NCBI GenBank assembly: GCA_951406725.2
Contig: OX597828.1
Location: forward strand, 66,278,001-66,342,000
Length of the DNA: 64,000 nucleotides
Direction: 5' to 3'
Source of the DNA: Octopus vulgaris
Taxonomy: Eukaryota
Shown here: piece by piece, positions 583-43,682 of the stretch
How the letters are laid out: each line of letters opens with the position of its first letter
Position numbering within the stretch: position 1 is the stretch's first letter
Program-made: the position numbers and the translations under genes
The notes under the pieces: model-generated
What the model was told of the DNA's origin: nothing
The model's database searches: none
What the model saw: the letters and a program-made list of their open reading frames with translations, nothing else

Positions 583-659
583 CTGGCATTTTCTTCGGTA
601 ATTTCGATCCCTAATCTGGACAATTCTCCACAAAGCCAATCGACCACAGGAGCAGCCAT
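583..659 (-). CDS. TRIP4: First coding exon of a probable activating signal cointegrator 1 (TRIP4/ASC-1); gene continues left of the window
   Basis: Minus strand AAACATGGCTGCT... translates MAAPVVDWLCGELSRLGIEITEENA(S/R), then a phase-2 donor CCAG|GTGAAT. Resembles the TRIP4 N-terminus (W..L...G....EE..., normally followed by Y-[IV]-L-S). Assignment is from recalled similarity of 25 aa, not a search. Confidence 0.7.
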
Positions 660-6224: not shown

Positions 6225-6748
6225 GGATCTTTTCGGTTTGAACGGCAGTTTTTTCTAGCAGTGTCATATGAAATTGTCACTCATAATTATGGCCCTAGAA
6301 TCGATCTATTGCATTTCAATCTGTTTTAGGGTTAGGGGTGGGGGGGAAGGGTATCTTTTTTTCTTCACAAATGTAAATAAACTCAATCTGTTTCTTAAAC
6401 GAGGGACACATTCATACGGCACAGAATGTTTTCACTTCAATAGACGTCATTGATTGGTTGGAATTGCAGAAATTGAAGAAAAAACAACAACAAATATCTT
6501 ACAAACCACAGAATCTTCTCAATAAAGCCAAGAGAAAAAGATGCTTTATAAAGACATTCTACCAGTATACGAAGTTTAAAAGTGTTTAGTTACGTGGAAA
6601 TTATTTTAAAAAACTGCCGTTCAAACCGAAAAGATCCCTAACCCTAAAAGAGATTGAAATGCAATAGATCGATACTAGGGTCATAATTATGGGTGACAAT
6701 TTCATATGACATCGCTAGAAAAAGCTGCCCTTCAAACCGAAAAGATCC
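6225..6748. mobile_element. Merlin-like MITE with an extra inverted copy of its left end
   Basis: TIR GGATCTTTTCGGTTTGAACGGCAGTTTTTT at 6225. Inverse TIRs end at 6637 and again at 6748. Confidence 0.85.
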
Positions 6749-10181: not shown

Positions 10182-10864
10182 AACCCAACTATCTTTTATT
10201 ACTATTTATTTTAGAGGACACATTACATAATGTAGTCTGAAGTGCGTTATATCTGAAGAATATTAAAAAATGGGTCAGTCTGTCACAACATGTCATTGTT
10301 TAGCACCAGGTTGGCTCCAATGCAGTTGACTTATGACCCCCTGGCATTCTACCCATAACCATTCCTTCTTTTATTTTTCATGTTGTACTCTGCATTATAC
10401 TATACAATGGCTTCTTTCCAGTAAAAAAAAATATGGTAAGATGGGAAATGAAGAAGATTTTGGTTTAAAAAGAAGAGACGAGATAAGAGATAATCACGTA
10501 TAGATTGTGGCATGAATGTAGTTGTATGGCTCTTAAAATACATGGATCCATGAATTGAATACAGCAAATAGTTTAAAATAAAAATAGTTAAGATAACAAA
10601 TATAAATTACAAAACGTTTAATCGTGGAAGAAATACAAATTTTGACCCTTGAAAAAATCTTTCTAATCCATTTAAATTATTGTAATTTTTGAAAACTTTT
10701 GAGTTCCTCTTCCTTCAAGCTAACAATACTGGAATCACGTTAATTATAATCATGTCTTTAGAAGATACATTTAGCTGAGATTCTTATAAAAACAAATAAT
10801 AATTTCTCTGTTGAGATTACATATTTGAACTATTCCAACATAATATCAACACAATGCAATAAAT

Positions 10865-11389
10865 TCAATGCTGAAGTGTTTCTTTATCAAACATATATTC
10901 ACCGAGGCCTTCGCCCAACTGCTTCAATCTCGAAATGTAATCAGAGATTTTCTTGATGTTTTCAACCTGTTTTCCAAGGGCGATCTTCTTCAGGAACCCA
11001 ATCAGCTGAGGATCTCCGTTCTTTTTAGCGCACAAAACCAGCTTCAGAAATTGCTGGTTGATATTTTTCTCAACGACGAGCGAATATTCCATGGCCGAAG
11101 CACCAGAATCCCAAAACGAAGTCTCCGGTTCGTCGATATTCTGCAGGACAACGCGACCACCACGTTTGTTTTGGTACTCCATCAGTTTGTCTGCTTGATG
11201 GAGATGCTGACGGTTTAGCTGCTCGAAGAAGAGATGGAACCCCTTCAGAGCAACATCACTCCTGTCGTAATGTGCAGCCTGGCACTGGTTCACGTAGGCT
11301 GACTTGAGTAACACGTTGATGCATTCGTTCAAAGTCTCCTCGCAATTGCGATGAAAATTCTGTCGAGCAGACATTTTCCTCAGGTTCAT
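10865..11389 (-). CDS. Intronless divergent ferritin (174 aa), predicted ferroxidase-deficient
   Basis: Uninterrupted full-length ORF with ferritin motifs RQNFH, DRSDVALKGF, KLMEYQNKRGGRVVLQNI, EKNINQ, DPQL and GLGEYMFDKETL. No signal peptide. Confidence 0.93.
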   Translation of the reverse strand: MNLRKMSARQNFHRNCEETLNECINVLLKSAYVNQCQAAHYDRSDVALKGFHLFFEQLNRQHLHQADKLMEYQNKRGGRVVLQNIDEPETSFWDSGASAMEYSLVVEKNINQQFLKLVLCAKKNGDPQLIGFLKKIALGKQVENIKKISDYISRLKQLGEGLGEYMFDKETLQH

Positions 11390-11668
11390 GCTGTTTGATC
11401 ACGTGACCTACCCACATCCGGTGAAGGGGGTTCGGAGACTTCCTCAGAAATATCCTCCCCCCTATTTATTTATTTATTTATTTATTTATCTGTATTTACT
11501 GTACTTTAATATACGTAAACACGTGTTTATGCTTTTATTTATTTACGCAGCGACGATTCCAAAATATTGCCGTTAATTATCTGTTAAATATCAGTTTTAT
11601 TACTATTACCTAAATTTTAGGAATTTTTCAATGTTCAAGTATCTGTAATAACGATTGTTGAAGTCAGG

Positions 11669-11862
11669 GTACTTGGGCGATCCTTCGGTATAGGTATCGT
11701 GAGTACCGGAAGTGGCTTTGTTTACATTTCTGAACATAACAGAAACCCTTTTCTCCCACCCCTAACCTTAACCCTAACCCCCCCCCCACCATATATATAA
11801 AAAAAACAACACTTTCTTGAAATGTATCCGGTACTTCCGGTACCTATACCGAAGTTACGCCA
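11669..11862. mobile_element. MITE (GGCGATCCTTCGGTATAGGT TIR)
   Basis: Imperfect inverse ACCTATACCGAAGTTACGCC at about 11842-11861. Interior shares the CCCTAACC motif with the Merlin-like MITE. Confidence 0.55.
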
Positions 11863-11959
11863 CGGTGATCTCCTAATGTACCACAAAACACATTTTTTGT
11901 TCGGAAAAGGGGTAGGGTGGGGTAGAACTATCAGAAATCCCCCCCCCCGCCATTTTCAT

Positions 11960-13700
11960 GGGGAAAATTTTTTTGGCTAATGTTTACAATATTATTCGGA
12001 AACGAAAAAAAAATAGTACGACGGTTGTAAATAAAATGTGTATGAAACGAATATGAAAACAGAAACGCGCGTACAAAGCAATAGAGGTTGGGGTGGGGAG
12101 AGGACTTTCGGAAAATTCCCAAGATCCGAGTTTTTCCTTCATATCTTTTAGGAAAATAGGTTTTTTTTTTAATGAAATTTTGTATAAATACCTTTCATAT
12201 GGTATAGGTTACGATTATAAAGAAATTTGTGGGTAAAATCTTTTCCGAGGGAGTTTAATAATAATAATGAAATTATTGTATACAGTGCTCAGGTGCACCA
12301 CAACTTGTCAGAAAGTGCGTATAGAGTATATGCAGTAATGTACAAATGTCTGGAAAGCAAACAATGTATGAGTCAGATACATGCTTGTGTGTGTATGGAG
12401 GGGAGAAAGTCAGGTGTAGTGTTGGCGAATCTCAGGAAGCATGGAAGTTTTGAAGGATGCAGTGCTCCGACAACTAACAACTGATGCCGGCAGTTTGTTC
12501 CATGCTTCAGCAACTCTCAGCGTGAAAAAAATGTTTCCTAAAGTCATGGGAGCTGTGCTGTTTTCTGACTTTGTAAACATGTCCACGGGTGTTAGATGGG
12601 TGGAGTTTGAAAAGGTGCTCAGAGTTAATGTTTGTACGATGGTTGATAATTTTATGTGTGTCTGCCAAGTCAGCTTCCAGACGTCAGAGTTTCAATGTGT
12701 CCATGCCCAGGGAAGTAAGGCGTTCAGAATATGGCGAATGCCTGATGGAGGGTATTCTTTTGGTTGCACGTCGCTGGACGGCTTCCAGACGACTGATATC
12801 CTGGGCAAGATAGGGGTTCCAGACCGGTGATGCAAATTCCAGGTGAGGTCTTACCATAGCTATATAAAGCCGCAGATAGATAGTCGGAGAGCGGCTCACA
12901 AAGGATTTGGTGAGTAATGCCAAGACACCCTCAGCCTTCTTGACAATTTTAGCGATATGTTTTGTCAAACGCAAATCACTGTCGACAACAACACCCAGGT
13001 CACGTTCACATGGAAGACTTTTTGAGATTAGTGTTGTGGAGGGAGCAGATGGACGCTGGGTTTCTCCTCCCAAAATGCATGGTGGTACATTTGTCCACAG
13101 CCAGCTTGAGTTGCCAGTCCATGATCCACTGCTGCATTGTGTCCAGGTCTGCTTGCAATAGAGATCTATAGTGTACAGGATCTGACCTCTTTATTTCAAG
13201 GTACAGCTTGATGTCATCTGCATATTTCAGCACTGTGGCATTCTTTAAGTTGGCATCTATGTCATTAACATATGCAACAAATAAGAGGGGGCCAGGAACA
13301 GATCCCTGTGGTACACCAGATGTCATCTCATAAGGTGAAGAGTTCTGTGACAACCTCTTTTCGGCCGAAAATAAAGGACTTCAACCAGTTATAGAGTTCG
13401 TCTCGTCTAGAGTTGGGAGAGGACTTTCGAAAGATTCAGAAGGTCTGAATTTTTCGCCCATAACTTTGAGGAAAATGGATATCTTTTTAACAAAATTTTA
13501 TATAAATATCTTTCAAATGGCATACATTACAGTTATAACGAAATTTGTAGGAGAAATCCTTTCTGATCTTGTGAATTTTCCGAAAGTCCTCTCCCCACCC
13601 CGTTGCTTTGCGCGCATTTTTATTTTCATATTCGTTTCATACACATTTTTTTTTTTGTTTTCGCTTCTAGGTAATATTGTTATCATTAACCAATTTTTTT
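11960..13700. mobile_element. Long-TIR non-autonomous DNA element split by a CR1 insertion
   Basis: About 11965-12130 is the inverse of about 13565-13700 (GGGGAGAGGACTTTCGGAAAATT / AATTTTCCGAAAGTCCTCTCCCC). Confidence 0.65.
12256..13405 (-). mobile_element. 5'-truncated CR1-clade LINE (RT C-terminal part, frameshifted)
   Basis: SGVPQGSVPGPLLF, KYADDIKLY, ERDLGVVVD and VRPHLEFASPVWNP..LEAVQRRATK motifs. (ATT)n tail. Confidence 0.93.
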
Positions 13701-41334: not shown

Positions 41335-43682
41335 ATCATCATCATCATCATCATCGTCATCGTCGTTTAGCGTCCGTTTTCCATGCTAGCATGGGTTGGA
41401 CGGTTCTACTGGGGTCTGTGAAGCCAGAAGGCTTCATCAGGCCCAGTCAAATCTGGCGGTGTTTCTACGGCTGGATGCCCTTCCTAACGCCAACCACTCC
41501 GTGAGTGTAGTGGGTGCTTTTTACGTGCCACCCGCACAGGTGCCAGACAGAGCTGGCAAACGGCCACGAACGGATGGTGCATTTTATGTGCCACCGGCAC
41601 AAGGGCCAGGCGAGGCTAGCAACGGACACGAAACGGGGCGGTGCTGGCAACGGTCGCGAAACGGAAGGTTCTCTTACATGCCACCGGCACTGGTAACACA
41701 TCTGCAATTTCCATTGATCGATTTCCATTCTGATCCTCACTTGCCTCAACGGGTCTTCACAAGTAGAGTTTCGACATGCCACCGGCACTGGTAACACATC
41801 TGCAATTTCCATTGATTGATTTCGATTCTGATCCTCACTTGCCTCAACAGGTCTTCACAAGTAGAGTTTTGTGTCCCAAGAAGGGAAGGTATGCATACGT
41901 AGGCTGGCTCCATCCCAAGTAGAAGGCCACGGGTTATGGACTCACTTGTCCTGCTGGGTCTTCTCGCGCACAGCATACTTCCAGAGGACTCGGTCTCTAG
42001 TCATTTCCTCAGTGAGACCTAAAGTTCGAAGGTCGTGCTTCACCACCTCGTCCCAGGTTTTCCTGGGTCTGCCTCTTCCACAGGTTCCCTCAACCGCTAG
42101 GGTGTGGCACTTTTTCACACAACTATCTTCATCCATTCTCGCCACATGACCATACCAGCGCAATCGTCTCTCTTGCACACCACAACTGATGCTTCTTAGG
42201 TCCAGCTTTTCTCTCAAGGTACTTACACTCTGTCGATTATGAACACTGACATTACACATCCATCGGAGCATACTGGCTTCATTTCTTGCGAGCTTACTCA
42301 TATCCTCAGCAGTCACGGCCCATGTTTCACTGCCATGTAGCATGGCTGTTCGTACACACGCATCATACAGTCTGCCTTTCACTCTGTGCGAGAGGCCTTT
42401 TGTCACCAGCAGAGGTAAGAGCTCTCTGAACTTTGCCCAAGCTATTCTTACTCTAGCAGTTACACTTTCAGCACACCCACCCCCGCTGCTGACTTGGTCA
42501 CCTAGGTAACGGAAACTATCAACTATTTCTAGTTTTTCTCCCTGGAAAGTGACGGAAGTTGGTCTCAGAGCATTTTCAGTGTTTATTGTTCCTGAGCATC
42601 TGCCACATACAAAAACCATCTTCCTAGTTAGCCTTCCTTTGACATTGCTGCACCTCTTATGTGTCCATAGCTTACACTTGGTGCATCTTATAGAGTTTCT
42701 ACCTACACCTTTTCTACAGATCGAGCAGGGCCATCTACCTGAAGGCGTTTGTGATTTGTCTACCTTCCTACTGATTACGACTTTGGTTTTAGCTAGATTG
42801 ACTCTGAGGCCCTTCGATTCTAATCCTTGTTTCCACACCTGAAACTTCTCCTCCAGTTCTGATAGCGACTCAGCAATTAGAGCAAGGTCATCAGCATAGA
42901 GGAGCTCCCAAGGGCATCCTGTCTTGAATTCCTCCGTTATTGCCTGGAGGACTATGATAAATAGGAGGGGGCTGAGTACTGAGCCTTGGTGGACCCCTAC
43001 CTCTACCCGGAATTCTTCACTGTACTCGTTTCCAACCCTCACCCTACTAGCAGCGTCCCTATACATGGCCCGCACAGCTCTCACTAACCATTCATCTATC
43101 CCTAGTTTTCTCATTGACCACCAGATAAGGGATCGGGGGACCCTGTCGAAGGCTTTCTCCATGTCAACAAAAGCCAGGTACAGGGGCTTATCTTTGGCTA
43201 GGTATTTCTCCTGCAGCTGCCTTACCAGGAATATAGCATCAGTAGTACTTTTCCCTGGCACAAACCCAAACTGCATCTCATCTAAACTAACTCTCTCTCT
43301 AATTAGTTGGGCTATGACCCTCTCCGTAACCTTCATCACCTGATCCAACAGCTTGATACCTCTGTAGTTATTTGTATCTAGGGCGTCACCTTTACCTTTG
43401 TAGCAGTTGACTATTATGCTGCTACACCAGTCATTGGGTATGACTCCTTTGTGTATCACCTGATTAACTATATGGGTGACTAGGCTATAGCCGACACTAC
43501 CAGACATTTTGAGCATCTCTGCAGTGATTCCTGATGGGCCTGGGGCTTTTCCTGTCTTCATGCCTTAGCTACCACGGAACTATCAACTCGGATAGCTGGT
43601 CCCTCTGTTGGGTCAACATTCGGCAGACTCTCTTTATCCCATTCATTTTCATTATTCAGCAAACTTTCATAGTGGCATCTCC

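Follow-up and report, generated by a model that had tools for sequence, protein, structure and literature searches.

A conserved, intronless octopod ferritin with a basic iron path and a probable lack of ferroxidase activity

Ferroxidase-dead ferritins are an already described and frequent class among invertebrates. In the passages of Adameyko et al. (2021, PMC8395497) that concern them, atypical ferritins without a signal peptide, e.g., HdF2 of a sponge, also lack an IRE, share about 41% identity with human H ferritin, and carry many ferroxidase and channel replacements. Within the 533 ferritins of that study, the atypical class comprises 18% of the non-insect invertebrate ferritins and is usually IRE-less; the ferroxidase-less HdF2 was found there in native complexes with ordinary subunits. 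Mammalian FTHL17, a ferritin-derived gene, is likewise devoid of ferroxidase activity, and the changes of its centre, as given in the relevant part of PMC7760355, are limited to E62K and E61D. Moreover, artemin of Artemia is a ferritin homologue without ferroxidase, nucleation, and channel residues (PMC9742257). Its 229 amino acids include a C-terminal extension and about ten thiols, and its channel is uncharged.

The gene described here is most readily compared with mollusc soma (H-type) ferritins, including three paralogues in the same genome, which have the same length and fold and align with its product without gaps; unlike the octopus gene, these paralogues contain three introns, intact iron residues and, in two of three cases, an IRE-like hairpin. 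Vertebrate L-chains share the ferritin fold with the octopus protein, which lacks the catalytic residues as they do; their pore is acidic, whereas that of the octopus protein is basic. In addition, the inner helix-B carboxylates that serve nucleation are retained in L chains (PMC12022971, in part) but absent from the octopus protein (Q57, R60, Q61, and H64; Q, R, E, and K in Argonauta). The protein fits the definition of an atypical invertebrate ferritin as worded in PMC8395497, where the O. bimaculoides orthologue may already be classed as such; the first-pass annotation of this DNA had left the class unmentioned. The reported E134A exchange of HdF2 is neutral, whereas the octopus path is basic. 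Compared with FTHL17, five of the seven ligands as well as the channel are changed. The two genes belong to different phyla, and the likeness is one of analogy only. Artemin differs from the octopus protein, which is of ordinary length and has a basic channel: neither an extension of 45-50 residues nor a high cysteine content was found in its 169-174 amino acids, which include four Cys, three of them common to Argonauta. Distinctive here is the basic reversal of the iron path, conserved across orthologues, whereas the loss of ferroxidase residues itself is already known.

The gene is located on contig C15 (OX597828.1), in a stretch of 64,000 nucleotides of Octopus vulgaris DNA, hereafter the window, at the following position:

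10865 to 11389, minus strand: intronless ferritin ORF of 174 codons, defined by ORF translation, Pfam, and alignment

The first-pass description of a full-length, intronless ORF without frameshift holds, as the 174 codons contain no internal stop. A second ATG at 11372-11374 (minus strand) would give 169 amino acids; the Argonauta and Logan records begin at the corresponding codon. The ORF matches Pfam Ferritin (E 2.8e-22; 79.6 bits against a cut-off of 24.5), and this score and a five-helix model place it in the animal maxi-ferritin (PF00210) fold. The AlphaFold2 model (pLDDT 88.5) comprises helices A-E and superimposes on solved ferritins with a TM of about 0.93-0.96, at 40-42% identity to human H structures; the alignment to worm and bivalve ferritin structures is free of gaps. 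The numbering of the protein equals that of the human H-chain up to about residue 158: both proteins have the RQN motif at residues 9-11, and alignment with 5jkk, a human H variant, is gap-free up to the DE loop. By inspection, the N-terminus is hydrophilic. In the databases the orthologues are named 'soma ferritin(-like)'. Literature searches by accession and by topic, the latter judged by title among the papers listed, revealed no paper on this gene, and the ferritin passages of PMC10142993, PMC6635378, PMC7850002, PMC9839350, PMC13193013, and two bioRxiv argonaut papers do not name it.

The three other ferritin genes found in the genome, one on contig C7 and two on C22, consist of four exons each, interrupted behind codons 37, 86, and 128. 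Their ferroxidase and channel residues are intact and their pI is 4.9-5.3. Exon 2 of one paralogue matches a protein labelled O. vulgaris with 100% identity, in agreement with an Octopus genome. In the window gene, the corresponding region is uninterrupted:

11005 to 11279, minus strand: continuous coding span over the three paralogue intron positions, from comparison with the paralogues

The octopus protein is 40-46% identical to these paralogues and differs from them at 54-60% of positions. The first-pass annotation had inferred that the gene is retroposed. In this respect, the absence of introns, the separate locus, and the three intron-bearing paralogues agree with the claim, whereas the parent was not placed by trees. 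Retroposition is the likely origin as judged from the gene structures, because all three introns are missing at the new locus and the paralogues lie on other contigs. The stem branch of the octopod clade is long (1.4-1.9 changes per site) and unplaced in three trees, and AU tests rejected none of the three candidate parents (p 0.09, 0.105, and 0.31). One of the C22 genes, C22b, had been guessed as parent from shared short motifs; this is unsupported, its AU p of 0.09 being the lowest of the three. No direct repeat of note flanks the ORF, and at such age its loss is expected. Two observations concern the paralogues themselves. The C7 ferritin (G000:C7:96509571-96528100; L011, L008) has His instead of Glu at position 140 and falls into a ferritin lineage distinct from that of the C22 genes. 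Intron 1 of the other C22 gene, C22a, contains a short duplicate of sequence from the last exon, which includes a stop, at L010:6729-6788 (minus strand).

The orthologues identified are those of O. bimaculoides (XP_014786113, 95% identity), of a Logan contig (93%), and of Argonauta hians (GAB1605196, 76%); below them, the best matches are ordinary ferritins of about 50% identity. No further orthologue was revealed when 793 candidates were searched with a profile, nor when 1.84 billion representatives were searched with an HMM, where relatives of more than 50% identity are hidden behind one representative. The clade appears octopod-only so far, although squid or cirrate members may be hidden in this way. 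Octopus and Argonauta represent two families whose divergence dates back tens of millions of years; the literature passages searched gave no date for this split. The pattern of orthologues identifies the gene as an old, conserved octopod gene that has been kept in two families.

A young pseudogene, the alternative considered in the first-pass annotation, fails against these data: at about 55% protein divergence the gene contains neither indels nor stops, and its orthologues are intact. No indel is present over positions 9-170 relative to five ordinary ferritins. Fourfold-degenerate sites match the paralogues at 9/24, 8/24, and 11/28 positions, i.e., synonymous sites are near-saturated, and when neutral substitution was simulated up to the distance of the paralogues, the frame stayed open in 22 and 27 of 3000 runs, with indels uncounted. 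All three of the listed coding differences are synonymous, with 21-28% expected for each. Constraint since the split of Octopus and Argonauta (12/71 versus 26/86, p=0.06; p 0.055-0.089 by neutral simulation) is borderline when taken alone, and an earlier version of this test (6/57 versus 26/86, p=0.007) was discarded as its choice of columns was biased. The protein has diverged about twice as fast as the paralogues (76% versus 86% and 88% identity to Argonauta). Taken together, the ORF almost certainly represents a functional gene.

The replacements at the iron-handling positions include the following:

11309 to 11311, minus strand: Leu27, replacing the ferroxidase residue Glu27; common to Argonauta
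11288 to 11290, minus strand: Asn34, replacing Tyr34; common to Argonauta
11195 to 11209, minus strand: residues 61-65, QHLHQ replacing EEREH; EHVKQ in Argonauta, with His62 and Gln65 common to both

All substitutions named in the first-pass annotation proved correct (L27, N34, Q61, H62, H64, Q65, K140, G131, and K134, with E107 and Q141 kept), and further changes along the iron path were added here, namely H118V, E116K, K122, K123, K135, K147, and R60. Thus, two of the seven residues of the ferroxidase set (E27, Y34, E61, E62, H65, E107, and Q141) are kept in the Octopus protein and three of seven in Argonauta. G131, K134, and K140 are present in all four orthologues, so that the acidic three-fold channel formed by D131 and E134 as well as the transit residue E140 are absent. 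Altogether 10 of 12 iron-handling positions are changed in the Octopus protein. Nine of these 12 are lost in both Octopus and Argonauta, compared with 17/71 other positions conserved in the family (Fisher p=0.001), and the losses are aimed at iron residues beyond chance. In line with the earlier description as neither H-like nor L-like, the protein has neither the H-type set of ferroxidase and channel residues nor the L-type nucleation residues.

By analogy with characterized ferritins, the protein very probably lacks ferroxidase activity. Ferroxidase activity and fast Fe2+ entry are both very unlikely, because in vertebrate ferritins a single change at D131, E134, E140, or E62 is enough to impair or abolish the uptake or the oxidation of iron: in the passages reporting these variants, D131N abolished rapid Fe2+ uptake by human H ferritin (PMC13088775), D131A/E134A/E140A impaired uptake by FtMt (PMC12022971), and E62K alone was enough to abolish ferroxidase activity (PMC7760355). 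Among distant representatives (148, of which five were dropped for gaps), 58/143 lack five or more of the 12 iron residues. None of these 143 shares more than two of the seven derived states of the octopus clade, and this comparison points to an origin independent of the other atypical ferritins.

The new basic residues are concentrated in one segment:

10949 to 11044, minus strand: residues 116-147, from the end of helix C into the first part of helix D, corresponding to three-fold pore and inner face; net charge +6

This segment holds K116, V118, K122, K123, G131, K134, K135, K140, and K147. Its net charge is +6, +5, +6, and +6 in the four orthologues versus -5.7 +/- 1.1, with a maximum of -2, in 201 ordinary ferritins, a set that leans to conserved ferritins because it was drawn from database matches of 160-185 amino acids. 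Seven of 11 new K/R fall within this fifth of the chain (p=0.002, the segment having been chosen after inspecting the substitutions), and all seven are basic in Argonauta, compared with one of the four outside the segment. Among 139 distant representatives, a single one reaches +5 in residues 116-147, namely P0332, an unrelated ferritin that carries K131/K134 and keeps the ferroxidase residues intact. Outside this segment, the octopod chain exceeds ordinary ferritins in acidity (-5 and -6 versus -2.6), and E18, E22, E71, E87, D94, and E101 are new acidic residues common to Octopus and Argonauta. Residues 131, 134, 135, and 140 line the pore and cavity of human ferritin according to the passages concerned in PMC13088775 and PMC12022971; we infer the same for the remaining positions of the segment.

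An excess of basic over acidic residues in the whole protein, as noted in the first-pass annotation (24 K+R versus 21 D+E), applies to the 174-residue reading, but two basic residues precede Met6, and from there the count is 22 versus 21; for the Argonauta orthologue it is 19 versus 19. The whole protein is therefore neutral rather than basic, and its distinctive trait is the local reversal. That cytosolic ferritins are acidic was confirmed, as all 201 ordinary ferritins have a net charge of -2 or lower (mean -9.2).

The gene is probably transcribed. At least 80% of its sequence words were found in 14 runs of 8 studies, which are guessed to be RNA; for this analysis 22 runs were examined, none of them on record as RNA and with coded tissues. 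Two runs from the same studies contained next to none of these words, which proves nothing. In four mapped runs, likewise guessed to be RNA, three single contigs of 752-1124 nt span the ORF, and unique stretches nearby had zero depth in two mapped runs. The contigs delimit two flanking regions:

10615 to 10864, minus strand: probable 3′-UTR, with contigs of three studies ending at 10615, 10632, and 10636
11390 to 11739, minus strand: upstream region, with one contig reaching 11739

The probable 3′-UTR contains one ATTAAA at 10617-10622. In contrast to the paralogues on C22, no sign of an IRE was found at the window gene, i.e., no loop hexamer in 11300-12100 and no Rfam IRE match in L001; an IRE might lie in a distant untranslated exon. 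The IRE-like hairpins upstream of both C22 genes rest on pattern search and inspection, as the Rfam scan covered sequence other than the first exons of the paralogues; for the C7 gene, no such hairpin was found in 400 bases upstream. Just upstream of the first ATG of the window gene, an E-box (TCACGTGA) is located at 11399-11406. This single 8-mer, which may be due to chance, resembles the CLEAR/M-box, a binding site for factors of the MiT/TFE or USF type, and could be part of a promoter acquired by the retrocopy. Among the rows listed for an ink proteome supplement, which was searched with two motifs, this protein is absent, whereas two ordinary paralogues are present.

Concerning the neighborhood, the first coding exon of TRIP4 (ASC-1) is located at window positions 583-659 on the same (minus) strand, about 10 kb downstream of the ferritin gene, and later TRIP4 exons at L020:4434-4781 and at L021:8692-8931 and 6248-6679 (minus strand) provide a useful synteny marker. 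Nesting of the ferritin gene in a host gene was unsupported: the scan covered 149 of the 189 long frames in 114 kb and yielded nothing but exons of TRIP4 and parts of retroelements, so that a host gene with short exons may have been missed, and since TRIP4 begins at about window position 659, the ferritin gene is located outside it, 10 kb upstream. Upstream of the ferritin gene, a 35-nt inverted repeat (11676-11710 and 11827-11861; 83% complementary, 116 nt apart) resembles a small transposon remnant. In addition, the window contains a broken non-LTR retroelement reverse transcriptase fragment (12684-13380, minus strand) and a 539-amino-acid reverse transcriptase ORF with a PHD-like finger, which is a piece of a non-LTR retroelement (41942-43561, minus strand).

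What might such a protein do? We tentatively propose that it acts as a non-catalytic subunit in cages shared with ordinary ferritin subunits. Lysine-lined pores would block the passage of Fe2+, and the subunit would thereby serve as a brake on iron traffic; Lys134 and Lys135 could pair with Glu134 and Asp131 of the paralogues in a mixed pore, and, with no IRE found, the subunit would be translated independently of iron. The native complexes of HdF2 described above provide a precedent for such mixing, as does the human D131I/E134F variant, which is reported in part of PMC3179174 to co-assemble with wild type ferritin. We favour this brake over the alternatives below but regard it as possible rather than probable, and the conserved charge of +6 may mean something else, because neutralisation of the pore alone would suffice for a brake.

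The full reversal instead of a neutralisation, kept in both genera, would be expected if the protein formed its own cage with inverted polarity, i.e., with basic pores and inner face and an acidic outside, and admitted, bound, or stored anions (for example phosphate, polyphosphate, or nucleic acid) in place of any iron chemistry. The more acidic remainder of the chain is consistent with this polarity. Moreover, K71E is accompanied by D44S/C at the predicted two-fold contact, where residue 71 lies near 42; an acid at 71 would face Asp44 of the paralogues, which hints at self-pairing. A self-dimer was also predicted: the three-copy model scored 0.73 versus 0.00 for the best control, with only the two-fold interface confident, although one of the three runs gave 0.01. 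Contact agreement among the runs is at least 0%, and the partner pLDDT is at least 88. For microbes, the score mark was reached by 21/30 solved one-chain pairs and 0/23 single chains, and for animals by 7/16; the pass may reflect a memory of solved ferritins. However, the six lysines at one axis (three K134 and three K135) may destabilise a pure cage, and one literature search revealed no precedent. An anion-storing cage is therefore rather unlikely in our judgement.

Alternatively, metal handling may have been abandoned altogether in favour of a role as scaffold, chaperone, or nuclear protein. The precedents are artemin, a chaperone without ferroxidase, nucleation, and channel residues (PMC9742257, in part), and FTHL17, which the passages in PMC7760355 describe as of intronless type, ferroxidase-less, and partly nuclear; the long stem branch agrees with such a departure. 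On the other hand, the octopus protein has no artemin-like C-terminal extension and four Cys only, and the clustering of the new lysines on the iron path would be left unexplained, which makes this role unlikely as well.

The first-pass annotation had proposed that the new His cluster in QHLHQ binds Cu or Zn. This did not withstand comparison with Argonauta, where His62 is the sole shared His and His64 is replaced by Lys, and the idea is weak because the cluster is unconserved. His62 itself is present in all four orthologues and is found at the former site B along with the retained E107 and Q141, so that one weak metal site might exist; octopuses use copper haemocyanin, which was counted in favour of this reading. 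However, with their i,i+2 spacing on helix B, His62 and His64 would face different sides and give no chelation, and a pore of +6 would repel Cu2+ and Zn2+ too, so that binding of these metals is improbable. Finally, a decaying or relaxed retrocopy without function would fit the faster evolution, the borderline constraint after the split, and the missing peptide among the rows listed of one proteome, but is very improbable for a gene that is intact and free of indels in four lineages, with a neutral survival under 1%, exclusively synonymous differences among the three listed, and losses targeted at iron residues.

Ferroxidase-dead ferritins have evolved repeatedly in animals, and few of them have an established role; the octopus gene provides a clean, small, and testable case. 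As part of mixed cages, its product would represent an inhibitory subunit that throttles iron storage without IRE regulation; as the sole subunit of a cage, it would give rise to a natural ferritin nanocage that favours, or is selective for, anions.
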